NCBI GenBank assembly: GCA_965226555.1
Contig: CBDDDG010000017.1
Coordinates: 1 to 13,147, forward strand
Source of the DNA: Salinispira sp.
Lineage (GTDB): Bacteria; Spirochaetota; Spirochaetia; DSM-27196; Salinispiraceae
Direction of reading: 5' to 3'
Length of the DNA stretch: 13,147 nt
The notes beneath the pieces were generated by a model. It was not told the origin of the DNA and did no database searches. It saw nothing but the letters and a program-made list of their open reading frames with translations. The position numbers and the translations under genes are program-made. Positions 1 to 13,147 of the stretch are shown here, piece after piece (positions within the stretch are counted from its first letter, which is position 1; each line of letters starts with the position of its first letter).

Positions 1-2
1 GC

Positions 3-752
3 GACACCGACACGCGCTACAACCCCTCCGGCTATACCGCAGCGGGGGATCACAGAGACGATTTCACCACGCTTGACGCTGCCGGAAACAATGTCCCCAT
101 TGGTATCTGGTCAAATGAAACGACAATGTGGGTGGTAGATCACGATGACCAAAAAATCTATGCCTACAACCTGAGTACCAAGGCCCGCGATTCGTCAAAA
201 GACTTCAACACACTTTCTGCCTCGGGGAACATTGTTCCCGCAGGTATATGGTCCGATGGGACAACAATGTGGGTGGTAAGTATTAGTGGAAAAATTTATG
301 CCTACAACATGAGTGACACATCGTACAATCCCGATAAAGACTTCGACACGCTTTCTGATGTCGGAAATACATACCCCGCAGGTATATGGTCAGATAGAAC
401 AACAATGTGGGTGTCGGATATTACCGCTAAAAAAATCTATGCCTACAACATGAGTGACACGACACACGATTCATCGAACGATTTCACCACGCTTGAGGCT
501 GCCGGAAACGCCCCTTACGGTATTTGGTCAGATGGAACAACAATGTGGGTGGTAAATATTATCAATGACAAGCTCTATGCCTACAACCTGATTACCAAGG
601 CCCGCGATTCGTCAAAAGACTTTGACTCGCTTGCCGCTGCCGGGAATACATTCTCCTCAGGTATTTGGTCAGATGGAACAACACTGTGGGCGGCGGATAA
701 CAGAGAGGACAAAATTTATGCCTACAACCTGAGTACCCGAGCGCGCCCATAA
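3..752 (+). CDS. 3' part of a repeat protein with ~47-aa GIWSDGTTMWV...KIYAYN units (probable beta-propeller); 5' end outside window
   Basis: The frame is open from base 3 (DTDTRYNPSG...), upstream of the listed ATG at 126. Five repeats of DF-x-TL-x-AAGN-x-P-x-GIWS-D-x-TTMWV...KIYAYN-x-S; stop TAA at 750-752. Confidence 0.85.
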   Translation, partial: DTDTRYNPSGYTAAGDHRDDFTTLDAAGNNVPIGIWSNETTMWVVDHDDQKIYAYNLSTKARDSSKDFNTLSASGNIVPAGIWSDGTTMWVVSISGKIYAYNMSDTSYNPDKDFDTLSDVGNTYPAGIWSDRTTMWVSDITAKKIYAYNMSDTTHDSSNDFTTLEAAGNAPYGIWSDGTTMWVVNIINDKLYAYNLITKARDSSKDFDSLAAAGNTFSSGIWSDGTTLWAADNREDKIYAYNLSTRARP

Positions 753-760
753 CAGAGCGG

Positions 761-849
761 CTGCTCGCCATGCGTCTGTTGCTGAGACAGGGGCTGGTCG
801 GAGGCTTGCGCCTCCTGCTCGCCATGCACCTGTTGCTGAGACAGGGGCT
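761..849. repeat. GC-rich REP-like tandem repeat (54-bp unit plus 35-bp partial copy) between convergent genes
   Basis: CTGCTCGCCATGC(GT/AC)CTGTTGCTGAGACAGGGGCT occurs at 761 and 815, with internal hairpin GGAGGC-TTGC-GCCTCC. Its reverse complement matches 8499-8535 and 5811-5927. Confidence 0.8.
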
Positions 850-1858
850 AATCCCAGCGAAAGAGCATAGCCGATATCAGAAACATTACCGTTGTGAATA
901 CGGTAAGAAAAAGCATGTTTGGAAAAATTTGAGCAAGACCGGCGCCGTCAATTGTAATGGCGCGCACAGCCTCAAGAAAATGTGTAAGCGGAAATATACG
1001 TGAAACATTCTGTATGGCAGGCGGAGCGCTTTCGAGGCTGAAAAATGCTCCTGAAAGAAACATCATCGGCCAGGTAACCAAATTTATCAAACCGCCGCCG
1101 AGTTCCTCAGTTTTTATCCGGGTAGCAAACAACAGCCCCAGGGAAATAAGGCCGAATATACCAAGGGTGGTCACAAAAAGAAGATCGAATACACTTCCCT
1201 TTATGGAAGCTCCGAAGATGAGACTGGCGCCGATAAAGACCACCGAGGAAGAAAAAAGGGCAATAATAAAGCGCGATGTTGCCTGCGCGCAAATAAAGCT
1301 GAGCGCTGAAATGGGCGTTGCCCGCATGCGCTTGAGCACCCCGTTTCTCCGATATCTGATAATTATGAATCCAACACCGAGCAGGCAGCTAAACATCAGG
1401 TTCAGGGCGATAATTCCCGGTATCATCCAGTCAATATACCGCGCGCTTTCTCCGCTTATCCGGGACTCGGTAAGTGAAAGCGGAGAACTTGTTATGAGAA
1501 TTTTTACCAGCGCAGCATCGGGAGACTGATCATTAATATAATATTTGCCTGTCTCAAAGTTAATAAACATGCTGATCTGATGCTTGCGGAGAGCATCAAG
1601 GGCATCGTGCTCACTCTCCCCTTGCCGGGAATAATCCACATGATCAATTCCCGATGTTTCCAGAAGATAAAAGCCCGAGGGAACTTCACCAATGGTTCCC
1701 ACCGTGAATATGGTATTGTTATTGTTTCCAAAAATTGCCGTGAGCCCCGCTATCAACAGCAGAGGAAAGAATAAATTCCAGAAAAATGCCCCCCTGTCGC
1801 GGACAAATTCAAGGTTTCTGGCATGTACCATGGCAAAGAATGGTTTCAGCTTATTCAT
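848..1858 (-). CDS. ABC-2 type exporter permease
   Basis: 336 aa. N-terminal TM (RDRGAFFWNLFFPLLL), YIDWMIPGIIAL, RRNGVLKRMRATPIS, FLSGAFFSLE, PLTHFLEAVR; several C-terminal TMs; 8 bp downstream of the ABC ATPase. Confidence 0.93.
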   Translation of the reverse strand: MNKLKPFFAMVHARNLEFVRDRGAFFWNLFFPLLLIAGLTAIFGNNNNTIFTVGTIGEVPSGFYLLETSGIDHVDYSRQGESEHDALDALRKHQISMFINFETGKYYINDQSPDAALVKILITSSPLSLTESRISGESARYIDWMIPGIIALNLMFSCLLGVGFIIIRYRRNGVLKRMRATPISALSFICAQATSRFIIALFSSSVVFIGASLIFGASIKGSVFDLLFVTTLGIFGLISLGLLFATRIKTEELGGGLINLVTWPMMFLSGAFFSLESAPPAIQNVSRIFPLTHFLEAVRAITIDGAGLAQIFPNMLFLTVFTTVMFLISAMLFRWD

Positions 1859-1866
1859 ATTCTTCC

Positions 1867-2790
1867 TTATGTCCGCAGAGAAGACCCTGTAAGTTTTATG
1901 AAGAGGTCTTCTAAGTTTGGCTTGTGGATATTAAGATTGTTGATGACAATATCGGCGCTGAGAAGGGTTTTTATTGTTTTATCCAGATACGGAGTAACAA
2001 TTTCCAGTTCTTCTTCAGTAATCCGTACGTCTTCGTTATTTCCAAACTGTTCCTTCATTGCATGCGCTGTTTCTCTGGTGAAATTTTCATCCCAAGGGAG
2101 ATGAATGAGGGCGCCATCGAAATGATTTGTGAGGAGCTTTTCCGGAGTATCGCGCGCAATAATTTTTCCGTTATCCATAATGGCGACTTCATCGCAGAGT
2201 ATCTGGGCCTCGTCCATATAATGTGTGGTAAGAATGATGGTGCAGTTTTCGGCCTTAATGTTTTCTATGAGGTCCCAGAAATTCCTGCGCGATTGAGGAT
2301 CAAGCCCGGTTGTCGGCTCATCGAGGAAAATTATTTCAGGATAGGGAATGATTGCCAGCCCCAGCAACATCCGCTGCCGCTGACCGCCGGAGAGTTTTCG
2401 GTTATCACGATTGATAATATCTTCCAGCGAACACAGTCTGATAATTTCTTCATGCGGACGCGAATTTTCATAAAAACTGGAAAAGAGGTTCAGCGTTTCT
2501 TTCACGGTAATAAACTCAGGGAGGGCGCTCTGCTGGAACTGTATGCCGATTTTCTGCTTGTAGCTGCGGTCATTCGGCCAGGCTATCGGCTGGTTGCGGA
2601 ATAGCAGTGAACCATTGTCGGGTTTCTGAATGCCCTCCATTATCTCAATTGTCGTGGTCTTGCCGGCTCCGTTGGGACCGAGGAGACCAAAGCACATTCC
2701 CTCTGGTATATCCAAATCTATACCGCGAAGAGCCTCCACCTTCCCAAAATTTTTTTTCAACTCCCGAACTGTCAAGATTACATTATCCAC
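1867..2790 (-). CDS. ABC transporter ATP-binding protein (DrrA/CcmA-like)
   Basis: Walker A GPNGAGKT, signature LSGGQRQR, Walker B IIFLDEPT, H-loop TTHYM, C-terminal NLEDLFIKLTG; GTG start. Confidence 0.96.
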   Translation of the reverse strand: MDNVILTVRELKKNFGKVEALRGIDLDIPEGMCFGLLGPNGAGKTTTIEIMEGIQKPDNGSLLFRNQPIAWPNDRSYKQKIGIQFQQSALPEFITVKETLNLFSSFYENSRPHEEIIRLCSLEDIINRDNRKLSGGQRQRMLLGLAIIPYPEIIFLDEPTTGLDPQSRRNFWDLIENIKAENCTIILTTHYMDEAQILCDEVAIMDNGKIIARDTPEKLLTNHFDGALIHLPWDENFTRETAHAMKEQFGNNEDVRITEEELEIVTPYLDKTIKTLLSADIVINNLNIHKPNLEDLFIKLTGSSLRT

Positions 2791-2796
2791 TCAGCA

Positions 2797-2825
2797 ATAA
2801 TAGTGAAATTGATGGGAGATGTCAA
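2797..2825 (-). promoter_or_regulatory. sigma70-type promoter of the ABC operon, probably leaderless
   Basis: Minus strand reads TTGACA (2825-2820), 17 bp, TATTAT (2802-2797), 6 nt, GTG start. No SD sequence. Confidence 0.75.
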
Positions 2826-2940
2826 TAGCCTGCTGCGCATACGGCTGTTGTGGGGGCGGGACGGGGCTGGAGTCGGTTGGTCATATTTCGTGCCGGTTTC
2901 GCTGTGAATGCCTTCGGCCGCACTCAATTTTTTTCTGTTC

Positions 2941-2968
2941 TTGATTTTTTTATTTTGGATGATATAAT
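2941..2968 (+). promoter_or_regulatory. sigma70-type promoter (extended -10) of the lipoprotein-nnr operon
   Basis: TTGATT at 2941-2946, 16 bp, TATAAT at 2963-2968 preceded by TGn. Confidence 0.6.
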
Positions 2969-2989
2969 CAATACTAGTGTTAACGCCAT

Positions 2990-4195
2990 ATGTCGAAATT
3001 TCCCATTTATGCAGCAGTCTATCTGCTTTTTCTTACTATTTCATGTAACCGCTCAGCCGTTTCAGGCGAAGTTCTTCCAGGAGAATTTCTGTTTTCTCTG
3101 GATATCGGTGTACTTGAAAACGAAATTGATCTCTTCCACCGCGGCGGAACCCTCCCCGAAGAGCGAAACAGCGTTTTCATGTACCGCGGCATTATCTTCA
3201 TCGCCAATTCCCTCGGAAATAAAATCATGGAATTCTCATCCTATGGCGATCTGATATCACTCATATACAATGCCGAAGAAAACCCCCGTCCGCTCCTTCT
3301 TTCATCGAGCCCCCGCGAGGGAAACATTGTCAACAAGGCTGCCCATTCATTTCCGTTCAGAAACATTGGGGAAATTTCCGTTAGTTCGGAAAATGTTCTG
3401 CTGGTAGCCGATACCGCTGCCCCCGGTCAGGAAGGATTCGACCTTGAAACAGGCGCTGCATTCCAGCATATTATTCATCGGTTCACATCGGAGGGAGATT
3501 ATCTCGACTATATTGGTCAGGAAGGGGTAGGCGGTACCCCCTTTTCTTTCATTGTTTCAATGAATGTAACTGCCCGCAATGAGCTTGTTGTTCTTACCCG
3601 CAGCAGTCATTCATACACGGTATTCTGGTACAACAAGGAAGGTAAGCAGTTGTTTGAAGTTATGCTGGATGATGCGCATCTGCCCGCGGGTAAGACACCT
3701 GCCGATTTTCCGAACATTGCGGGGGTTTTCCCGGACACGGAAAAATACTGGCTCTATCTTCATATTAATTATGACAACAGTGAATCGAAAGGAGTTGATT
3801 CTTTGGTATATGTGCTTGATCTTTCGACAGAAAAATACAGCAGCAAATTTGAGCTCGATACTAATCGGCAGGCCCTGCCGAGTAATGAGGGTATGGACTA
3901 TGTCGATTATCCCTATCAGTTCATCGGAGTTGCTGAGGGGGGTAATCTTTTCTTCATCAGCCGTAACAGCGCTTTTGAACAATCGCTTGCTGTTTTCGAT
4001 TTTACCGGTGTTCTGAAAGTACGGCGCATACTGCGGGTGGAGAATCCTGATATATTCTTCAGCGACTATCAGGTATCGCTGGAGGGTATTATTACGGCGC
4101 TCATGAGTGATCCTGACAGTGCCGATGTTTACTGGTGGCGGACCGACAGGATTCTCGAACCTTTACGGACTGCTTCACGGAGGAGAGATTTGTGA
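2990..4195 (+). CDS. spirochaetal lipoprotein, LIC_12708-like family
   Basis: Signal peptide ends in lipobox LTISC. Motifs IFIANSLGNKIMEFSSYGDLISLIYN and YIGQEGVGGTPF are recalled from this spirochaete family (from memory, not searched). Confidence 0.7.
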   Translation: MSKFPIYAAVYLLFLTISCNRSAVSGEVLPGEFLFSLDIGVLENEIDLFHRGGTLPEERNSVFMYRGIIFIANSLGNKIMEFSSYGDLISLIYNAEENPRPLLLSSSPREGNIVNKAAHSFPFRNIGEISVSSENVLLVADTAAPGQEGFDLETGAAFQHIIHRFTSEGDYLDYIGQEGVGGTPFSFIVSMNVTARNELVVLTRSSHSYTVFWYNKEGKQLFEVMLDDAHLPAGKTPADFPNIAGVFPDTEKYWLYLHINYDNSESKGVDSLVYVLDLSTEKYSSKFELDTNRQALPSNEGMDYVDYPYQFIGVAEGGNLFFISRNSAFEQSLAVFDFTGVLKVRRILRVENPDIFFSDYQVSLEGIITALMSDPDSADVYWWRTDRILEPLRTASRRRDL

Positions 4196-5739
4196 ATTAT
4201 GCCATAGATACCCATCGCATGAGGGCCTTTGACGCTCAGGCAACCGAGATCATTCCCGAAATGATCCTCATGGAGAACGCCGGCCGGCTTATTGCCGAAC
4301 ACATTATACGGGATTTCCGCGCTTCCCATCTGAAAACACTCCTTATTCTGGCCGGAACCGGTCATAACGGCGGCGATGCCCTTGTTGCGGCCCGGCATCT
4401 GAACAATGAAGGAATACCAACACGGATTTTTCTGGTCAACAGAAAACTCAAACCCCTCACGCAAACGATGCTTGAAACCCTCGATAGCCATTTGAGCACC
4501 GTTTCTGCGCTTTCTGAAACCGGCCCCAATGAACTCATAGCTTTCCTCAAACACAAACACTGCGTCGTTGTCGATGGCGTACTCGGCTCAGGAATACGCC
4601 GCCCAATTTCAGACAGTACCCTTCTGACGGTTATTGAGCACTGGAATCGGAGTGCAGCATTTCGTTACGCGATAGATGTACCGAGCGGTATTTCTGACAT
4701 TGCTGAATCGGAAGAACCAACCCCCGTATTCTTCCATGCCAACTGCACCCTTGCGATCCAGTTTTCCCGTACGGCGCTCTACGGTAACCTGAGAGAATAC
4801 TGCGGAAACATCCGGCATTTGGAAATTGGATTTCCCGCGGCGCTTCTGCGCAGGTACACGGAAGCTCAGCAGGAACATGGACTCATCCCCCTGCTTGAAA
4901 CAGAAGATCTGCCGGAACGTATTCCGCCGATACCTGCGGGTGCACACAAGGGAAAACGAGGGAAGGTTGAGATATTTGCGGGGAGCCGGGGAATGGAGGG
5001 AGCCGCAGTGCTTGCTGCGCGGGCAACCCTGCACAGCGGGGCGGGCATGGTGCGTATCGACTGCCAAAGTGAATCAATCATTGACGAAGTTCTGAATCAG
5101 GAAGCGGCAATCATGGCAGATACGGAAACAAAGCCGGGCTCTTGGGGCAGCTGCCTGCTCGCGGGTCCGGGCTGGGGAAGGCAGACGCAGAAAACACGCG
5201 AGGTGATGATGGAACTCATACAGAGTAATCTCCCGCTTGTTGTTGATGCCGATGGTTTTCGGAATCTCAAAGCACTGTATGATGCGGGGGGCAACGCATT
5301 TCGGAACAATCTGCGCAAGCGCAACGCGGCGCTTGTGCTCACCCCCCACCCTGGAGAGGCTGCTTTTCTCCTTGAAGATGCTATAGAGGAAGTGCTCTGT
5401 CGTCCGCTGCGGTCTGTACAGCGTATCGCGGAACGGTACCATGCCTATGTTGTTCTGAAAAACTCAGTAAACCATATGAGCACCCCGCAGGGAAGGGTCT
5501 GCATCCACGACAGCCGCCTGCCTGCTCTCGGTACGGCGGGAAGCGGTGATGTTCTCGTTGGAATTATCGCAGGTCTGCTTGCGCGGGGGGTGGATGCCGA
5601 CAATGCGGTATCTGCTGCTGTTATTCTTCACGCGGGAGCGGGGAGACGCTGCTTTCTGAACCGCGGATGGTTTACGGCAAGTCAGCTCCTTGAAACACTC
5701 TCAACATTAGCCGGTGAAATTCAGTATATGAATAATTAA
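4192..5739 (+). CDS. nnr: bifunctional NAD(P)H-hydrate epimerase/dehydratase (YjeF/Nnr)
   Basis: YjeF_N motifs LMENAG, GTGHNGGD, VDGVLGSG, IDVPSG. Carbohydrate-kinase motifs HKGKRG, GPGWG, VVDADG, LTPHPGE, GTAGSGDVL. Likely GTG start at 4192 overlaps the upstream TGA; SD GGAGGAG at 4179-4185. Confidence 0.95.
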   Translation: MNYAIDTHRMRAFDAQATEIIPEMILMENAGRLIAEHIIRDFRASHLKTLLILAGTGHNGGDALVAARHLNNEGIPTRIFLVNRKLKPLTQTMLETLDSHLSTVSALSETGPNELIAFLKHKHCVVVDGVLGSGIRRPISDSTLLTVIEHWNRSAAFRYAIDVPSGISDIAESEEPTPVFFHANCTLAIQFSRTALYGNLREYCGNIRHLEIGFPAALLRRYTEAQQEHGLIPLLETEDLPERIPPIPAGAHKGKRGKVEIFAGSRGMEGAAVLAARATLHSGAGMVRIDCQSESIIDEVLNQEAAIMADTETKPGSWGSCLLAGPGWGRQTQKTREVMMELIQSNLPLVVDADGFRNLKALYDAGGNAFRNNLRKRNAALVLTPHPGEAAFLLEDAIEEVLCRPLRSVQRIAERYHAYVVLKNSVNHMSTPQGRVCIHDSRLPALGTAGSGDVLVGIIAGLLARGVDADNAVSAAVILHAGAGRRCFLNRGWFTASQLLETLSTLAGEIQYMNN

Positions 5740-5756
5740 AAGGCAAAGTGCCCCCT

Positions 5757-5940
5757 CCGCATGGGCGAGCCGGATGCCCGGGCGAGCAACGCTGAAGCGC
5801 GACCAGCCCGGACGCATGGCGCTCAGCGCCGACCGCCGACCAGCCCATAGCCCCAGCAACAGACGCATGGCGCGCAGCGCCGACCGCCGACCAGCCCATA
5901 GCCCCAGCAACAGACGCATGGCGCGCAGGCCAAGCGGCGA
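5757..5940. repeat. GC-rich REP-like cluster with a 51-bp tandem unit (2.3 copies) between convergent genes
   Basis: GACGCATGGCGC(T/G)CAGCGCCGACCGCCGACCAGCCCATAGCCCCAGCAACA at 5811 and 5862, partial at 5913. Shares GCATGG, GGCGAGCA and CGACCAGCCC motifs with 761-849, 8494-8535 and 10369-10420. Confidence 0.8.
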
Positions 5941-5943
5941 TAA

Positions 5944-6219
5944 TTAATGCGATCCGTTCCGCACTGTCCGCATTTCCTCATCGCTCAGCCCGGTAACATC
6001 CTGAATGTCATGGGCTGAAAATCCTTTGGAAAACATACTGCGGGCGTTTTTTCTCCGCTCCTCAATATGCCCCTCAACCCGGCCTTTCAGAATGCCTTTC
6101 TCCATTCCTTTTGCAATGCCTTTCTCCATTCCTTTCAGAATGCCCTTCTCCATTCCCTCAATCCGGCCCTTCGCAATGCCTTCCCTGACGAAGGCGTTGG
6201 TAATATTATATGTCCGCAT
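5944..6219 (-). CDS. putative internally initiated small C-terminal protein (RpnS-like antitoxin), 91 aa
   Basis: GGAGGAG (6234-6228), 8 nt, ATG (6219), in frame within the rpn gene: MRTYNITNAFVREG...GSH. Confidence 0.62.
   Translation of the reverse strand: MRTYNITNAFVREGIAKGRIEGMEKGILKGMEKGIAKGMEKGILKGRVEGHIEERRKNARSMFSKGFSAHDIQDVTGLSDEEMRTVRNGSH
6061..6180 (-). repeat. 12-bp coding tandem repeat (10 x G-x-x-x)
   Basis: GIAK GRIE GMEK GILK GMEK GIAK GMEK GILK GRVE GHIE; the paralogue at 10539-10646 has 9 units. Confidence 0.85.
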
Positions 6220-6720
6220 ACTGTTTTCTCCTCCAGGGAACAGTTCCCTGTCAATTTTCTCAAACTGTTCATACAGTCCCAGATCTTTTAGATAGCCTAG
6301 CACACTCTCTGCCAGATCAGTAAAGTCTTGTGAAGACAGACCGTTCAGGAGCTGCGCAATTTCTTTCAGCCCCTCAGCATCCATTTCATTGTCTCGCATT
6401 ATATACCACAACGCAGTCGATGTATATCGTTTTCCATCGAAACGCCATGCCAACTGATTCTTTGTCATTCGCCCCAGATCGCGCACAATGTACGACACTC
6501 TCGCCCTGACATCTACCGTTCCTTCGGTAAGGGATTCGGAAGCTGGATTTCCATGAGAACTGTAAAATGTGAGTGGGAGGTTCCATTCCTTTTTTCCATG
6601 GTAGAGCAGAAGTATATAGATAGCATCATTTTCATTGTACACATTGCTGTTTCTGAGGGCATATTGATAATTATCGATTTGAGTGAGCGCATGTTTGTGC
6701 TGGTAGCTTTTATGTTCAAT

Positions 6721-6849
6721 ACGAAAGTTTTGCTACTGGAAATTGTGCTTGCACAATTTTCCAAGGCAAAACTTTCTATACCGTGAGAGAATCAAGAGTA
6801 TAGATGAGAGAATCCTCATTGGAAAATTTTGCTCCGCAAAATTTTCAGT
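6721..6849. mobile_element. hairpin element E1, type I, 129 bp
   Basis: Absent from the paralogue (11311-11322 TTCAAT|AATAAA). Ends ACGAAAGTTTTGC...GCAAAATTTTCAGT; nested palindromes. Confidence 0.9.
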
Positions 6850-7224
6850 AATGAACAGGGACTTCCGGTCGGGGTCTGACAGGAAGGGGGCGCTGACAAC
6901 GAGATCGCAGTGAAGGTTCTTTTTTCCTGCAATGTAGCTGGGGGTTTCAATGCGGATTTTGCCCAGGTCCAGCTTGGCAAGCGTTGTATCCTCACAGAAG
7001 AGCCGCAGCAGGTCGGGAATCAGCCGGGGGGTTCTGTAGTAGGCGATCTTGAAGGCTATGTCGTGGATGTGGCATTTGCTCTGGGATGATTTTTTCATAT
7101 TGTTTCCCTCCTATATCTGTGACGGGTAAAAAGTCATTTTTAACTGTGTTTTTGAAAAGAATTTGAAAGAATGTTGTGTTTTTTTCGGGGAGTCGGGAGG
7201 GAGGGATCGGGAATGGGGGCTGGT

Positions 7225-7254
7225 ATGCTCTGTGTCGATATACTTTTTGCTCAT
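7225..7254 (-). pseudogene. 10-codon remnant of a third type-B rpn 5' end
   Basis: Reads MSKKYIDTEH versus MSGKYIGMVH, directly behind a copy of the type-B leader. Confidence 0.6.
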
Positions 7255-7334
7255 ACTATATAGACGGGTAAAATATAAACGGTGTATGACAAAATGAGAA
7301 ATTTTTGTAATTATTTTTATTATTTTGGGATATT
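7249..7334 (-). repeat. type-B rpn leader/promoter, copy 1 of 3
   Basis: 86 bp, near-identical to 8271-8356 and 10147-10232. Confidence 0.88.
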
Positions 7335-7390
7335 ACAAAGTTTTGCTACTGAAAATTGTGCAAGCACAATTTTCCAATGCAAAAGTTTGT
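7335..7390. mobile_element. hairpin element E2, 56-bp collapsed form
   Basis: ACAAAGTTTTGC-TACTGAAAATTGTGC-AA-GCACAATTTTCCAAT-GCAAAAGTTTGT; same flanks as E4. Confidence 0.85.
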
Positions 7391-7421
7391 ACTATTTGAC
7401 CTGACCCCGGCGCGGGGCACG

Positions 7422-8276
7422 CTGAAATAATTTCTTTGTTTCATCCCTCGTTATCTTACCATCAAACCTCTTTATTATCCATTCACAGAAAATTGTGCTC
7501 TGCACAATTTTCCAATGAGGGTTCTCTCATCTATATTCTTGATTCTCTCCAGGTATAGAAAGTTTTGCTACTGGAAATTGCGCACGCGCAATTTTCCAAT
7601 GCAAAACTTTGTCATATAATACATCGCTATTTTCGGACATCTTATTCTGTATCATATTGTTGAGTATGGCGATTGTTTCTTCTGTGTATTCTTCTATTGT
7701 TCCAAGATTCTCAATATACATTATTGCAGAAATGACTCCGCCTGCGGAGATCAGTTCCTTGTTGCTGAAATTCTCAACGTTGATCTGAAAATAGGGGGAT
7801 ATACAAATGCCTAAGTAAAGATATGATGAAAAATCTATTTTGCGGGGGTCAGAATTTGTCATTGGCGCTCCGGAGCAGGTGTATATGACAAGGGTGATTA
7901 TCCGGTAATCGGATTTCTTCTTTCCCGATGAGGAAATGCGTTCGGATAAGTGCTGGGCGTATGTGTATATTCTCCCGGGCATGGTGTTATCCACTGTCGA
8001 CTGAAACTCAATGATAAAGTAGACATCGAGCGGTTTCAGTTTCCGCGCGCTATCTTTGAAACGGCATGTGGTTTTGTAAATGACATCGGAGATGGAATGC
8101 CTGAGTTCGCCTTTGTGGATAAATTCAGGGTTGATGCTCAGCATACTCTCGGGAACAATGCTCCGCGCGAGGTCCTTGTTGAAATATGAGTATATGAAAT
8201 CCCTGAATATCAGGGGATTTTCAAAAACATATTTCCAGCTTTGGTCGTGTACCATTCCGATATATTTTCCGCTCAT
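7422..8276 (-). pseudogene. Rpn-like nuclease type B copy 1: catalytic domain intact, one element, C-terminus deleted
   Basis: HDQSWKYVFENP, SDVIYK, YFIIEFQST, ITLVIY. The ORF runs into E3 and stops at 7527. The gene resumes as EWIIKRFDG...KLFQ, then lacks 238 bp relative to copy 2. Confidence 0.88.
7485..7613. mobile_element. hairpin element E3, type I, 129 bp
   Basis: ACAGAAAATTGTGC...GCAAAACTTTGTC; removal joins VLY|EWIIK in frame. Confidence 0.88.
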
Positions 8277-8356
8277 ACTATATAGACGGGTAAAATATAA
8301 ACGGTGTATGACAAAATGAGAAATTTTTGTAATTATTTTTATTATTTTGAGATATT
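8271..8356 (-). promoter_or_regulatory. type-B rpn leader, copy 2, with possible promoter
   Basis: Minus strand TTCTCA (8322-8317), 17 bp, TATATT (8299-8294), with A-tracts upstream. No SD before ATG 8276. Confidence 0.5.
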
Positions 8357-8593
8357 ACAAAGTTTTGCTACTGAAAATTGTGCTCTGCACAATTTTTCAA
8401 TAAGGATTCTCTATTCTTGATTCTTGATTCTCTCAAGGTATAGAAACTTTCTATAAAATAGGAGAATGCTAAGCACAAAGAAAGCATTCCTGACGGACGC
8501 ATGGGCGAGCAGGAGGCGCAGCCTCCGACCAGCCCTCGGAAACTTTTGCTACTGGAAATTGTGCAAGCACAATTTTCCAATGCAAAAGTTTGT
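8357..8593. mobile_element. composite hairpin element E4, 237 bp (type II containing a partial type I and a 42-bp GC-rich REP unit)
   Basis: ACAAAGTTTTGC...GCAAAAGTTTGT; GAATGCT...AGCATTC hairpin module; REP unit at 8494-8535. Confidence 0.85.
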
Positions 8594-8640
8594 ACTATTT
8601 GACCTGACCCCGGCGCGGGGCACGCTGAAGTAATGCGCTG

Positions 8641-8838
8641 CTACGCTTCGCCGTTTTTCTGAAATGATCGAATTTCATCTTCGCTGAGCTCGGTGTACTC
8701 ATGAATACGGTCTATTGGCAGACCATCCCTGAGCATTTTGAATACCTGCTTACGCTGGGTCCGAGCAATTTCACGCTGGTTCTGAGCTTGTCCCTGCTCA
8801 AGTCCTGCCCGCCATGGCTTATCTAAAAGATCTACCAT
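8641..8838 (-). CDS. putative internally initiated small C-terminal protein (RpnS-like), 65 aa
   Basis: GAGGAGGT (8853-8846), 7 nt, ATG (8838): MVDLLDKPWRAGLEQG...IHEYTELSEDEIRSFQKNGEA. Confidence 0.65.
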   Translation of the reverse strand: MVDLLDKPWRAGLEQGQAQNQREIARTQRKQVFKMLRDGLPIDRIHEYTELSEDEIRSFQKNGEA

Positions 8839-8925
8839 ACGTTTTACCTCCTCAGGATTTTCCTGAAATAATTTCTTTGTTTCATCCCTCGTTATCTTAC
8901 CATCAAACCTCTTTATTATCCATTC

Positions 8926-9054
8926 ACAGAAAATTTTGCTCTGCACAATTTTTCAATAAGGATTCTCTCATCCATATTCTTGATTCTCTCAAGGTATAGA
9001 AAGTTTTGCTACTGGAAATTGCGCACGCGCAATTTTCCAATGCAAAACTTTGTC
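8926..9054. mobile_element. hairpin element E5, type I, 129 bp, same site as E3
   Basis: Same junctions as E3; several internal substitutions; three in-frame TGA. Confidence 0.88.
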
Positions 9055-9216
9055 ATATAATACATCGCTATTTTCGGGAATCTTATTCTGTATCATATTG
9101 TTGAGTATGGCGATTGTTTCTTCTGTGTATTCTTCTATTGTTCCAAGATTCTCAATATACATTATTGCAGAAATAACCCCGCCGACAGCCTTCAGTTCAT
9201 CGTTGCTGAAATTCTC

Positions 9217-9318
9217 ACTGAAAATTTTGCTCTGCAAAATTTTCCAATGAGCTTTCTCTCATCTATATTCTTGATTCTCTCAAGGTATAGAAAGTTTTGC
9301 ATTCTGCAAAACTTTGGT
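9217..9318. mobile_element. hairpin element E6, type I, 102 bp
   Basis: Absent from copy 1 (ATTCTC|AACGTTG). ACTGAAAATTTTGC...GCAAAACTTTGGT. Confidence 0.9.
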
Positions 9319-9450
9319 AACGTTGATCTGAAAATAGGGGGATATACAAATGCCTAAGTAAAGATATGATGAAAAATCTATTTTGCGGGGGTCAGAATTG
9401 ATCATTGGCGCTCCGGAGCAGGTGTATATGACAAGGGTGATTATCCGGTA

Positions 9451-9552
9451 ACTGAAAATTTTGCTCTGCAAAATTTTCCAATGAGCTTTCTCTCATCTAT
9501 ACTCTTGATTCTCTCAAGGTATAGAAAGTTTTGCCTGAGGCAAAACTTTATT
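9451..9552. mobile_element. hairpin element E7, type I, 102 bp
   Basis: Absent from copy 1 (CCGGTA|ATCGG). ACTGAAAATTTTGC...GCAAAACTTTATT. Confidence 0.9.
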
Positions 9553-9657
9553 ATCGGTTTTATTCTTCCCCGATGAGGAAATGCGTTCGGATAAGCGCTG
9601 GGCGTATGTGTATATTCTCCCGGGCATGGTGTTATCCACTGTCGACTGAAACTCAAT

Positions 9658-9888
9658 ACAAAACTTTTGCATTGGAAAATTGCGCGTGCGCAATTTCCAG
9701 TAGCAAAAGTTTCAGATTCGAAATGCTTTCTTTGTGCTTAGCATTCTCCTATTTTTAGAAAGTTTTGCCACTGAAAAATTGTGCTCTGCACAATTTTCCA
9801 ATGAGGGTTCTCTCATCTATATTCTTGATTCTCTCCAGGTATAGAAAGTTTTGCCTCAGGCAAAACTTTGTTGTGGCAAAACTTTGGT
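9658..9888. mobile_element. composite element E8, 231 bp: 129-bp type II with a 102-bp type I nested at 9770-9871
   Basis: Absent from copy 1 (CTCAAT|GATAAA). Removing 9770-9871 restores GAAAGTTTTGC-CTGTG-GCAAAACTTTG, the same hairpin as in E10. Confidence 0.9.
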
Positions 9889-10146
9889 GATAAAGTAGAC
9901 ATCGAGCGGTTTTAGTTTCCGCGCGCTATCTTTGAAACGGCATGTGGTTTTGTAAATGACATCGGAGATGGAATGCCTGAGTTCGCCTTTGTGGATAAAT
10001 TCAGGGTTGATTCTCAGCATACTCCCGGGAACAATGCTCCGCGCGAGGTCCTTGTTGAAATATGAGTATATGAAATCCCTGAATATCTGGGGATTTTCAA
10101 AAACATATTTCCAGCTTTGGTCGTGTACCATTCCGATATATTTTCC

Positions 10147-10232
10147 GCTCATACTATATAGACGGGTAAAATATGAACGGTGTATGACAAAATGAGAAAT
10201 TTTTGTAATTATTTTTATTATTTTGGGATATT
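10147..10232 (-). repeat. type-B rpn leader, copy 3
   Basis: Near-identical to 7249-7334 and 8271-8356; the putative -10 reads CATATT here. Confidence 0.85.
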
Positions 10233-10368
10233 ACAAAGTTTTGCTACTGAAAATTGTGCTCTGCACAATTTTCCAATGAGGGTTCTCTCATCTCTATTCT
10301 TGATTCTCTCAAGGTATAGAAACTTCTATAAAATAGGAGAATGCTAAGCACAAAGAAAGCATTCCTGA
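10233..10368. mobile_element. element E9, left part of an E4-like composite, fused to a GC-rich REP cluster
   Basis: Colinear with 8357-8493 up to GCATTCCTGAC; the right-hand hairpin is missing. Confidence 0.8.
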
Positions 10369-10420
10369 CCGGTCGCATGGCGAACCGGATGCGCTTGGGC
10401 GAGCAGGCCGAGCAGCGCCA
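10369..10420. repeat. GC-rich REP-like sequence downstream of rpn A2
   Basis: GCATGGCGAACCGGATGC...GGGCGAGCAGGCC resembles 5759-5788 joined to 5925-5940. Confidence 0.65.
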
Positions 10421-10421
10421 A

Positions 10422-10685
10422 TTACTGCGATCCGTTCCGCACTGTCCGCATTTCCTCATCGCTCAGCCCCGTAATTCTCTGAACAGCCTTGGTCGACAAC
10501 CCTTCCAAAAACATACTGCGGGCGTTTTTTCTCCGCTCCTCAATATGCCCCTCAGCACGACCTGTTCGCAGTCCTTTCAGAATGCCCTCAGCCCGGCCCT
10601 TTGTGATACCCTGCTCAAGACCCTCAATCCGGCCCTTCGCAATGCCTTCTCTGACAAAGGCGTTGGTAATATTATATGTCCGCAT
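10422..10685 (-). CDS. putative small C-terminal protein (RpnS-like), 87 aa
   Basis: AGGAG (10698-10694), 8 nt, ATG (10685): MRTYNITNAFVREG...GSQ. Confidence 0.6.
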   Translation of the reverse strand: MRTYNITNAFVREGIAKGRIEGLEQGITKGRAEGILKGLRTGRAEGHIEERRKNARSMFLEGLSTKAVQRITGLSDEEMRTVRNGSQ

Positions 10686-10698
10686 ACTGTTTTCTCCT

Positions 10699-10828
10699 AC
10701 TGAAACTTTTGCATTGGAAAATTGTGCAGAGCACAATTTCCAGTAGCAAAAGTTTCACATTTGGCAGGCCTCGTTGCGCTTGGCATTCTCTCATTTTGCA
10801 GAAAGTTTTGCCTGTGGCAAAACTTTGT
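10699..10828. mobile_element. hairpin element E10, type II, 130 bp
   Basis: Absent from copy 1 (TTTTCTCCT|CCAGGG). ACTGAAACTTTTGC...GCAAAACTTTGT, with a diverged central module. Confidence 0.88.
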
Positions 10829-11383
10829 CTAGGGAACAGTTCCCTGTCAATTTTCTCAAACTGTTCATACAGTCCCAAGTCCTTCAGGTAACCCAGCACA
10901 CTTTCTGCCAGATCAGTAAAGTCTTGTGAAGACAAACCGTTCAGGAGCTGCGCAATCTCTTTCAGCCCCTCAGCATCCATTTCATTGTCTCGCATTATAT
11001 ACCACAACGCAGTCGATGTATATCGTTTTCCATCGAAACGCCATGCCAACTGCCTCTTGTCCATTCGCCTCAGATCGCGCACAATGTACGATACTCTCGC
11101 CCTGACATCTACCGTGCCTTCGGTAAGGGATTCGGAAGCAGCATTTCCATGCGAACTATAAAATGTGAGTGGGAGGTTCCATTCCTTTTTTCCATGGTAG
11201 AGCAGCAGTATATAGATAGCATCATTTTCATTGTACACATTGCTGTTTCTGAGGGCATGCTGATAATTATCGATCTGTGCGAGAGCCTGTTTGTGCTGGT
11301 AGCTTTTATGTTCAATAATAAAAAGAGCTTTCCGCTCGGGGTCAGACAGGAAGGGGGCGCTGACAACGAGATCGCAGTGAAGG

Positions 11384-12447
11384 TGGGATATAAACCTTTG
11401 GACAGACCCCTCCTCCCCAGTGTAAAACGAAGGTTATTCGTATACACTGGGGGTTGTATAAAACATAAAAGGAGGGAAACAGTGAACAGTAGTATCACAT
11501 ATTCTCAGTATCATCTCAAGTCTCGGAAGTATCAGGCGGCTTCGATGTATGATTGGCGGTTGCGGATGGTTCGGTATGCCCAGGAGCATTCGATCAAGGC
11601 GGCTGCTCGGGAGTTCGAGGTGTCGCGCAACACGGTGCGGCGGTGGGTTCGGCGCTTTGAATCCGGCGAGGGGCTTGAAGACAAAAAGCGGGGCACGACC
11701 AATCATCCGATGAAGATGAAATTCGGGCACCGGTGTCATCTCGAGAGTCTTGTCCAGACCAAGAATCGGAATCACAACAAAATCATTGGAACTCAGGTGC
11801 AAAAGCAGTTGCAGACGGAAGTTGGCGGGAAGTACAGCCTGCCGACGATTATCAAGACGCTAAAGCAGATAGGGGCGCAGAAAACAAAGAAGCCGAAGGC
11901 GCTACCCAAGAGAGATTTGCGGGAGGTAACCGACAGGATGAAGTTTGGCGAGTGCATTCAGATTGATATCAAGTATCTGACGGACATTCCCGCTATGCGG
12001 TTTTCTCAGAAGTGTTTAGACGTTCCGAAGTACCAGATAACTGCCCGGGATCGGGCGACAGGGGCTCTGTGGTACGCCTTTGCCAATGAGAAGAGCAGTA
12101 TGGTAACAACCTTGTTCGCCGAGTACCTGCTGGAGCACCTGCGGAATCATGACGGAGACCTTGCCAAGGACATAACGGTTCAGACCGATAACGGGGCAGA
12201 GTTCACCGTTCGACATCTGAGCAAAACCCGAACATCGGGGTTTGAGCAGGCGCTCATACAGGCGGGTGTCGAGTATCGGCGTATTCCGCCCGGGCATTGC
12301 ACATGGAACAGTTCTGTCGAGTCCTCGCACCGGCTCATTGAGGATGAGTTCTACAGTCAGGTGATGAATCCAAAGCTCAATGAGTTTCTTAAGGAAGCCG
12401 AGGAGTATCAGATAGATTTCGATGTGGGAGGGCGAATTCAACCATAA
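11384..12447 (+). mobile_element. IS481-like insertion sequence, probably truncated on the right
   Basis: Begins where rpn homology stops. Leader hairpin CCCCAGTGTA...TACACTGGGG at ~11416-11453. No convincing matching right IR, and the rpn 5' part does not resume after it. Confidence 0.65.
11482..12447 (+). CDS. DDE transposase (HTH + rve integrase core), IS481-like, 321 aa
   Basis: SD AGGAGG at 11470-11475, GTG at 11482. HTH IKAAAREFEVSRNTVRRWVRRF; catalytic QIDIKY, QTDNGAEF and NSSVESSHRLIEDEFY. Confidence 0.88.
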   Translation: MNSSITYSQYHLKSRKYQAASMYDWRLRMVRYAQEHSIKAAAREFEVSRNTVRRWVRRFESGEGLEDKKRGTTNHPMKMKFGHRCHLESLVQTKNRNHNKIIGTQVQKQLQTEVGGKYSLPTIIKTLKQIGAQKTKKPKALPKRDLREVTDRMKFGECIQIDIKYLTDIPAMRFSQKCLDVPKYQITARDRATGALWYAFANEKSSMVTTLFAEYLLEHLRNHDGDLAKDITVQTDNGAEFTVRHLSKTRTSGFEQALIQAGVEYRRIPPGHCTWNSSVESSHRLIEDEFYSQVMNPKLNEFLKEAEEYQIDFDVGGRIQP

Positions 12448-12498
12448 GTGTAGCACATCTATTCCCTCGCCGATTCAAAATTCGTACAAAATTCACTT

Positions 12499-12557
12499 CC
12501 AGAAACCTTTGCATTGGAAAATTGTGCTCTGCAAAATTTCCAGTAGCACAATTTATA
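12499..12557. mobile_element. hairpin element E11, ~55-60 bp, degenerate, boundaries approximate
   Basis: GAAACCTTTGC-ATTGGAAAATTGTGC-TCT-GCAAAATTTCCAGTA-GCACAATTT; it supplies the TAA stop of the 12553-12792 gene. Confidence 0.75.
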
Positions 12558-12792
12558 TGCGATTTCTCTGGAAATTCTCTATAGACTTCATGAGGGATTG
12601 AATGTCTTTGCTCTGCTCCTGTATAACTTTTTTCAATTCCTGAATGTCGATTTGCAGGGATGTGACATCGTGCTTCATTACCGGTTCTTCGTCGCACTGG
12701 GCAATGACATTTACCAGCGCTTCCGATTGTTGGGAAGAAAAGCCGTTTTCAAGCAGTTTTTTTGATGCTTTTAAGGTATCAATCATAATCAT
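12553..12792 (-). CDS. small coiled-coil protein, DUF1640/CCDC90-like, probably truncated by E11
   Basis: N-terminus IDTLKASKKLLENGFSSQQSEALV fits the family pattern, followed by heptads (LQIDIQELKKVIQEQSKDIQSL). Confidence 0.65.
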   Translation of the reverse strand: MIMIDTLKASKKLLENGFSSQQSEALVNVIAQCDEEPVMKHDVTSLQIDIQELKKVIQEQSKDIQSLMKSIENFQRNRI

Positions 12793-12842
12793 AATTTATG
12801 TATACAAAATTCGGGAATGATTATCAATAGGAATCGTGTCAT

Positions 12843-12871
12843 TTGTGAACTGCGCTGAAATACGGTATATT
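12843..12871 (+). promoter_or_regulatory. possible leaderless promoter of the PBP gene
   Basis: TTGTGA, 17 bp, TATATT, 7 nt, ATG 12879; no SD. Confidence 0.45.
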
Positions 12872-12878
12872 TCAGGCA

Positions 12879-13147
12879 ATGAATAGCCCGAAACTCAACC
12901 GCCGCATGTACTATGTTATCATCTTTCTTGGTATTTTTGCCGCCGGCATTATCCTGCATTTCGGAAACATCATGCTCAGCGCCGATCCGCCGCAGCCGGC
13001 AACCATAACGGCAGAGGTTGAGCGCGGCCCCATACTCGACAGAAACGGACGCCTGCTTGCCATACAGTCCGAACTCCCGACCGTTACCGTCTGGAATCCC
13101 GATGTGGAGGACAGAGAAAAACTTGCCGGAACACTTGCCCAAATACT
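12879..13147 (+). CDS. 5' part of a class B penicillin-binding protein (FtsI/PBP2-like); runs off window, not in the ORF track
   Basis: MNSPKLNRRMYYVIIFLGIFAAGIILHFGNIML... gives one TM anchor, followed by the dimerisation-domain motif ERGPILDRNGRLLA. Confidence 0.88.
   Translation, partial: MNSPKLNRRMYYVIIFLGIFAAGIILHFGNIMLSADPPQPATITAEVERGPILDRNGRLLAIQSELPTVTVWNPDVEDREKLAGTLAQI

Follow-up and report, generated by a model that had tools for sequence, protein, structure and literature searches.

Hairpin elements recur at shared sites, including one beside the catalytic Glu codon, in the expanded rpn gene family of a Salinispira genome

Short hairpin elements interrupt rpn genes in a stretch of Salinispira sp. 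DNA (GenBank assembly GCA_965226555.1, contig CBDDDG010000017.1, positions 1 to 13,147 of the forward strand), which was analysed over its whole length of 13,147 nt and is hereafter called the window. Rpn genes have been described to encode toxic nucleases and, from an internal translation start, a C-terminal antitoxin (10.1101/2023.05.02.539157), here termed RpnS. The window contains four rpn copies of families A and B, all on the minus strand, in the order A1, B1, B2 and A2. The element E1 lies in A1 between TTC ATT and ATT GAA and is missing from A2, and the element E8 lies in B2 between TTT ATC and ATT GAG and is missing from B1. The window sequence and the alignment of the sister copies bear out the original prediction that the same codon was hit in both families, as the two inserts occupy the same aligned nucleotide, 3 nt before a Glu codon. 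We consider it probable, though far from certain, that E1 and E8 came to lie at the same base because an IS5-type transposase (a label read from the protein of a resident insertion sequence (IS)) used a favoured AT-rich 5-mer that the conserved Ile-Glu codons preserve almost unchanged in both families, and that the inserts then spread among paralogues by short gene conversion. This reading builds on ends in common with the resident IS and 5-bp duplications, the high rank of the site in a target matrix, the top similarity of families A and B at this point, confinement of the inserts to the toxin half of the genes, their stops and frameshifts, and their exact presence or absence among copies. 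Within the expanded Rpn family, the inserts act like knock-out alleles that can be converted.

The rpn copies compared all come from one metagenome assembly that mixes at least two strains. The Glu beside the insert site aligned with E82 of Escherichia coli RpnA in 71 of 71 clean copies from families A to E, and the E82A substitution in RpnA was reported to abolish the recombination, toxicity and SOS phenotypes alike (PMC5350276). The equivalents of D11 and E82 were found in all clean copies and that of D63 in nearly all; the Q84 position is occupied by Q in families B, C and E and by Lys in A and D. Among copies with both anchors, the Glu site was filled in 14 of 66 (family A), 4 of 9 (B) and 1 of 7 (D). 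All 14 family-A copies carried E1 at the same junction and in the same orientation, and skipping E1 restores an uninterrupted frame of 341 aa in A1. The Glu site of family B held 129-, 161- and 231-bp versions, and another site of this family, B+395, held 59, 102, 129 or 130 bp. In simulations with the observed site numbers per family, any exact site shared by A and B had a p of 0.039 with uniform and 0.051 with target-matrix weights, and one shared by them at most 3 codons from the Glu had a p of 0.0008 and 0.013, respectively, for a position that was chosen post hoc. Four exact cross-family pairs were found vs. 0.16 (uniform) to 0.49 (matrix) expected (p 0.0001–0.002), three of which involve family D and are probably not independent. 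The coincidence at the Glu site exceeds chance, modestly.

A map of insert positions on the aligned rpn genes, which had been proposed as a check along with the original prediction, comprised 19 sites (A 5, B 7, C 2, D 3, and E 2) at 16 aligned positions that spread along the whole toxin half; one of the B sites rests on an IS insertion and a one-sided junction of a miniature inverted-repeat transposable element (MITE), and this two-sided site table excludes about 94 elements matching a clean gene on one side only. Shared between families were the Glu site (A, B, and D) and a site at the RpnS ribosome-binding site (A and D). Two of the 16 positions fell within about one codon of the D11, D63, E82, Q84 and R94 equivalents, where about one was expected (judged by reading), and one family-E site lay just after the D11 equivalent. 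In families C and E, Leu instead of Ile precedes the Glu, and none of the inserts mapped to their 43 and 16 uninterrupted motifs. The resident IS and the MITE were both found in one non-catalytic 5-mer of family B, and repeated hits therefore need no active site. Of the six inserts in the window, five contain a stop codon in frame and the other one causes a frameshift, so that the long protein is lost wherever an insert lies and the knock-out is independent of position.

The target matrix, a crude one built from 46 non-rpn sites, has the consensus C-TNNNA-G in AT-rich DNA, and the Glu site ranked in its top 1.3% in family A, 3.9% in B and 4.5% in D. The 14-nt window around the Glu site was also the best in-register match between A and B (12/14, top 0.2%); the B-D comparison gave 12/14 at the same place (top 0.5%), and the second shared site gave 13/14 between A and D (top 4%). 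DNA identity between families is a stronger clue than the matrix to why that particular codon was hit. Because the best A-B match lies at the Glu site, either both families offer the same landing sequence there or exchange between them is possible. Conserved catalytic codons are the places at which diverged paralogues retain the same DNA. The simpler account that a plain AT-rich target motif would explain the insert positions, named in advance as one that would undo the original prediction, was supported in part by the high rank of the Glu site in the matrix, but the motif alone does not predict the match between families.

The hairpin family comprised 493 motif-bearing elements in the 2.98-Mb genome (617 before a motif filter, with some borders over-extended into rpn sequence), each of which consists of three or four abutting hairpins. 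As DNA, E1 folds with −33.5 kcal/mol (z −7.8), and it was absent from 40 of the 40 related genomes searched. Exact 5-bp duplications flanked 47 of 153 de-duplicated non-rpn elements, vs. 1.9 expected. The hairpin MITE matches the resident multi-copy IS in its ends and in its 5-bp duplications, and the ends of seven other IS types are unrelated to it; the first placement of the inserts by the enzyme of the resident IS is likely, given the common ends. The elements crowd around rpn genes: 190 of the 493 lie no more than 200 bp from rpn sequence, where about 57 would be expected. Inside rpn genes, 2 of 47 rows had an exact duplication and 39 of 47 had a GT-type end, compared to 23 of 68 and 10 of 68 outside, where the rows are not independent sites. 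The two 5-mer copies at E1 differ at two positions, with one side perfect in 2 of the 14 copies, and the duplication at E8 is degenerate and one base short. A MITE site in an IS5-type transposase gene was filled in three copies (contig positions C26:9486-9619, C10:540011-540144 and C10:480598-480731), with a GT junction worn as in E8, and hybrid elements uniting ends from different sites were also found. Most inserts have one orientation relative to the gene, but both orientations occur; with 26 to 19, no bias between replication strands was apparent. Hits in essential genes were sought among the 34 non-rpn elements whose open frames on both sides were longest; those among the matches listed lay between genes or inside genes for transposases or repeat families, apart from a single short insert in frame. 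At C10:38690-38725, a short hairpin stands in frame in an apparently intact gene. We also noticed that inserts often lie directly upstream of a ribosome-binding site, such as those of RpnS in families A (window 10701-10830) and D and that at the start of family C (C10:111111-111242). The target consensus ends in A-G, and the ribosome-binding site begins likewise.

All copies at one site agree in their orientation and in their worn junction, which points to a single origin at each site and against repeated fresh transposition. The 14 E1-filled copies had 14 different flanking haplotypes, with allele ratios like those of the 52 empty copies. Between E1 and single-nucleotide polymorphisms (SNPs) 3–12 nt away, r2 was 0.00–0.02, and on a weakly resolved tree the E1 label required 10 changes for 11 copies, as in shuffles, at least three of them forced by strong branches. 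Linkage among the SNPs was at background by 20–50 nt, which is the mark of short conversion tracts among paralogues. Of the allelic contigs C13 and C16, one carried E1 and a 131-bp insert, and the other lacked both exactly, although no SNP separated the two contigs over about 515 nt; a third insert differed in the opposite direction, and C8 and C21 differed by three inserts. The allelic contig pairs (C13/C16, C8/C21, C17/C10 and C17/C9) represent at least two strains that are 93–99% alike, and their rpn arrays differ in inserts, repeat number and copy number. Insert-bearing genes were otherwise intact in 26 of 27 cases in family A (with up to four inserts), 8 of 11 in C, 3 of 4 in B and 2 of 2 in D, and insert-free genes were intact in 29 of 33 (A) and 31 of 34 (C). 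Of the private changes in filled copies, 17 were synonymous and 16 were not, which exceeds the neutral 28% (p 0.003); in insert-free copies the figures were 20 and 26, a comparable ratio. Insert-free genes were in excess over the prediction for independent sites (29 vs. 21, p 0.02).

The genome contained 140 matches to PF04754, compared to 0–4 in seven genomes of the same family, and the long rpn open frames were distributed as C 42, A 40, E 12, D 6, B 3 and two singletons, counts that the allelic contig pairs inflate slightly. The rpn sequence makes up about 6% of the genome and falls into at least five families. The rpn pieces in the window scored 21.6–36.9 bits against PF04754 (21.6 for the 3′ piece of A1, cut-off 21) and below the cut-off of TIGR01784. 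A motif search yielded 149 candidate internal RpnS starts, which are predicted to produce antitoxins, and all mapped insert sites lie upstream of a predicted RpnS start, i.e., in the toxin half. Behind these 149 predicted starts, no clean insert was found, though 11–25% of the matrix weight lies there (roughly p 0.02, an estimate); two of the starts were flagged, one for a 45-bp rearrangement piece and one behind a truncated RpnS. In family C, a 160-bp deletion is common to six copies, with and without inserts.

In the mechanism that we propose, the IS enzyme would insert the hairpin at favoured 5-mers; knock-outs of the toxic long protein would be tolerated and hits in the antitoxin purged, as the site map suggests; and upon pairing of a filled with an empty copy, the hairpin would loop out and then be copied, be removed, or end the conversion tract. 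Conversion at the hairpin would also erode the duplication bases adjoining the element. Large loops are generally ignored by MutS, and both MutS and MutL are present in the genome. Mismatch repair in Salmonella was reported to leave tracts with one poorly repaired mismatch, the neighbours being left behind (PMC5485169), and loops were reported to be removable or retainable via a separate pathway (PMC2504288). The proposed exchange resembles these processes, as far as the available parts of both papers describe them, in short tracts with one marker minus its neighbours and in loops that are removed or retained, but these processes are known for point markers 20–90 nt apart or from yeast extracts, whereas the inserts are hairpins of 100–230 bp with SNPs 3–10 nt away.

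Several observations weigh against this mechanism or against parts of it. The inserts are less linked than the SNPs (|D′| of 0.1–0.37 vs. 0.45–0.70 within 10 nt, from few pairs in family A), and plain conversion therefore needs extra assumptions. The mosaic of SNPs could in part have arisen during assembly; the E1 junction is covered by public contigs of two studies that differ from the window by 0–8 letters (a fourth run gave none), and this speaks for real variety but leaves it unphased. Contigs of four sequencing runs, compared over 5900-11450, did not separate the paralogues. The Glu site of families C and E ranked only slightly lower in the matrix (top 8.1 and 6.5%) than the sites that were hit. 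Although 14 of the 19 sites fell within the matrix top 10%, this count is inflated, as the 5-mer offset of six sites was fixed after viewing three offsets, and the other five sites ranked poorly (25–76%). The matrix also leaves the A-B match unexpected (p 0.05 anywhere and 0.013 near the Glu). The rpn inserts mostly lack a clean duplication, which makes another insertion route possible, and E1 and E8 agree at 18 of the 19 nt that span the right junction. The mechanism leaves unexplained the consistent AC/GT bases at worn junctions, the orientation bias, and the lower linkage of the inserts.

That right junction bears on whether E1 and E8 are independent events, as had been proposed. The two elements are of different types, lie in opposite orientation and differ in linker and left junction, and the E8 core is closest not to E1 but to the element in the IS5-type transposase gene, with which it has the GT end in common and whose flank differs. 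Independence is thus plausible, but the near-identity of the right junction makes full independence less certain; that the elements differ is true of type and orientation but is weak proof, because one site can hold several element versions. We favour, short of proof, separate insertions with a later exchange of ends. The family-D insert at the Glu site equals E1 in type, orientation and right junction and is likely E1 copied across families via 15 identical bases on one side. Alternatively, there may have been a single insertion at the Glu site, which then passed from A to both B and D via 12 shared bases and whose interior was replaced later by conversion with other elements. The common right junction, whose sequence word occurred 21 times and always at the Glu site of A, B or D, speaks for such a single origin, as do the turnover of element content in place, the hybrid elements, and the location at the best A-B match. 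We nonetheless regard it as unlikely, though not negligible, because of the differences in orientation, linker and left junction, the kinship of E8 with the IS5-gene element, and the very little homology that 12 bp provide. Less likely still is a dedicated, footprint-free route of insertion and excision, possibly with a structure-specific nuclease such as Rpn, that toggles toxin copies at fixed sites. It would account for the concentration of GT-type junctions in rpn genes, exact gain and loss without flanking SNPs, the crowding of elements near rpn, the prevailing orientation, and the ACT codon of the E1 left junction in 3 of 52 empty A copies. Conversion could explain these ACT codons equally well, however, and no match to PF01797 (Y1 HUH), PF02371 (IS110), PF00239 (serine recombinase) or PF00078 (reverse transcriptase) was found in this 93.5% complete genome, where PF00589 gave three hits and profile searches with PF12784 and SbcD_C gave no match. 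In addition, RpnA was reported to be weak and non-specific (PMC5350276), and the available text of 10.1101/2023.05.02.539157 judges a transposase role of RpnA highly unlikely.

It is very unlikely that the inserts are removed or bypassed in expression like introns, with filled genes still making toxin. Insert-bearing copies are otherwise intact, and their private changes resemble those of insert-free copies, in favour of such a bypass, but fast turnover alone explains the intactness. Moreover, the inserts occur in both orientations and vary in length and ends at one site, a Rfam search gave five weak matches, all far below the gathering cut-off, and the excess of insert-free genes looks as if empty copies were kept. 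In-frame domestication of the inserts was ruled out by their stops and by lengths that are often not multiples of three, and ribosome hopping was ruled out by eye, as matching codons on both sides occurred only at the Glu sites. The claim of the original prediction, that insertion targets the nuclease active site or is selected for there, is hardly credible, and the site map largely refutes it. Three families were hit next to E82, at a position with low p, and one family-E site follows the D11 equivalent; yet 14 of the 16 positions lie elsewhere, the second shared site is non-catalytic, the Glu of families C and E was not hit, and stops kill the protein anywhere. The analogy with inteins behind that claim does not carry over either. 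The persistence of inteins at conserved sites was ascribed to their splicing and to the difficulty of deleting them (PMC7765530). The inserts resemble inteins and homing introns, as the available part of that source presents them, in a shared site within conserved catalytic codons and in spread into empty copies, but they have no splicing domain and no endonuclease; they are 100–230 bp long with in-frame stops, they have no Rfam match near the cut-off, no PF00078 was found in the genome, and most sites lie off conserved residues. Least credible is plain chance, i.e., two unrelated insertions on the same base. Any exact A-B match has a p of only about 0.04–0.05 and the scan covers many windows, but the four cross-family pairs, even with three of them tied to family D, far exceed the 0.16–0.49 expected, and the match falls on the single most similar A-B window.

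Separate insertion by the IS enzyme followed by short conversion thus remains our preferred explanation, and most of its parts have known relatives. Like IS5-family MITEs, which are non-autonomous and moved by a resident transposase, the elements as a family are non-coding, have the ends of a resident IS, a 5-bp duplication and an AT-rich target. They differ in their modular build of three or four hairpins; moreover, a clean duplication is missing from most of those inside rpn genes, where many paralogues bear them at the same fixed sites. They differ from hairpin elements of the IS200/IS605 type, or REPINs, in that the Y1 HUH transposase of these was not found in the 93.5% complete genome, nor was the IS110 recombinase (PF02371) of the targeted IS110/IS1111-type elements. 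In the knock-out of self-toxic cas defence genes by IS, as described in the available part of PMC10359306, insertions also spread over a toxic nuclease gene and are set by a target motif; there, however, a full IS enters one target gene, whereas here tiny elements enter a hundred paralogues, the antitoxin half is spared and inserts are exchanged among copies. The host genes agree with the published Rpn (YhgA-like, PF04754) genes-within-genes, as the sources at hand present them, in the D11, D63 and E82 equivalents, the internal ribosome-binding site with ATG and 4-residue repeats, and tandem arrays. They differ in number (about 140 matches in 3 Mb, compared to 26 copies in a published high example; 10.1101/2023.05.02.539157), in the Lys at the Q84 position of families A and D, and in the recurrent hairpin inserts in toxin halves, which are absent from the available parts of the published description (10.1101/2023.05.02.539157; PMC5350276). 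A literature search, with most subscription journals and bioRxiv supplements outside it, gave no account of MITEs recurring at fixed sites of rpn paralogues. The parts, an IS5-type MITE and Rpn genes, are known, and their arrangement as convertible, toxin-only knock-outs at fixed sites is new in the literature searched. The comparison with relatives that had been proposed yielded no usable second lineage: among 300 genomes from the phylum, a single one matched the family B protein, at 31%, and there were 7 distant metagenome loci.

The features of the window are listed in Table 1. The truncated IS481-like copy at the 5′ end of A2 (NF033577, 105 bits, below the cut-off of 224) belongs to an element with about 20 copies of 1253 bp, TGGGATAT ends and long flanking duplications; in the window, it is followed by a remnant resembling an IS30-type end. 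The 8-mer TGGGATAT is also present in an rpn upstream block. This block and the first ~50 codons of family B (window 8153-8360 and 10029-10235, and many other loci) precede many family A and C genes, which suggests a common duplication unit. A second, GC-rich repeat class flanks rpn genes at 5760-5940, 8495-8540 and 10365-10420, with three 51-bp units at 5809-5934. At 3-752, an open frame with tandem repeats of 46–47 residues and a WSDGTTMWV-like motif probably encodes a beta-propeller, and related units were found at C13:8016-8637.

Table 1. Positions of rpn copies, inserts and the neighbouring IS in the window.
Feature	Position	Strand	Description
rpn copy A1	5944..7098	-	family A, PD-(D/E)XK, E-H-K motif; single 341-aa frame apart from E1
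RpnS antitoxin of A1 (predicted)	5944..6219	-	purine-rich ribosome-binding site, ATG and 4-residue repeats, after the model of 10.1101/2023.05.02.539157
Glu codon of A1	6715..6717	-	aligned with RpnA E82
E1	6721..6849		129-bp insert with four hairpins, L1 linker type, one in-frame TAG
rpn copy B1	7427..8276	-	E-F-Q motif, Glu site empty, without RpnS end; PF04754 E 3.6e-9
insert at B+395 in B1	7485..7613		129 bp
rpn copy B2	8641..10152	-	interrupted by four inserts; apart from these, frame open as far as the RpnS start
RpnS of B2 (predicted)	8641..8838	-	uninterrupted
insert at B+395 in B2	8926..9054		129 bp
insert at B+235 in B2	9217..9318		102 bp
insert at B+101 in B2	9451..9552		102 bp
Glu codon of B2	9652..9654	-	aligned with RpnA E82
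E8	9658..9888		231-bp composite of an L2-type 129-bp core and a nested 102-bp L1 unit; in-frame stops
rpn copy A2	10422..11384	-	Glu site empty; 5′ end cut off by IS
insert at A+483 in A2	10701..10830		130 bp, just upstream of the RpnS ribosome-binding site; site common to families A and D
multi-copy IS, truncated copy	11385..12423	+	IS481-like transposase; ends unrelated to the hairpin inserts

What looked like targeting of an active site thus reduces to a plainer rule, namely that conserved catalytic codons keep the same DNA in diverged paralogues, and paralogues with the same DNA there share landing sites and can trade inserts. The usual outcome of MITE insertion is a decaying pseudogene. 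It is unusual that genes with up to four stop-bearing inserts are otherwise intact and that inserts appear and vanish exactly. A bolder formulation, less likely than not and offered tentatively, is endonuclease-free homing of hairpin knock-out cassettes, in which about 19 toxin-half sites in more than a hundred Rpn genes would be switched off and on base-exactly with flanks untouched, the cassettes crossing diverged families at conserved motifs and leaving the population with a shuffled repertoire of active toxins over intact antitoxins. If the insertions are reversible, they would allow the dose of a very large toxin-antitoxin family to be tuned, and they would provide, from a distant lineage, natural genetic support for the Rpn model of a long toxin and a short antitoxin.

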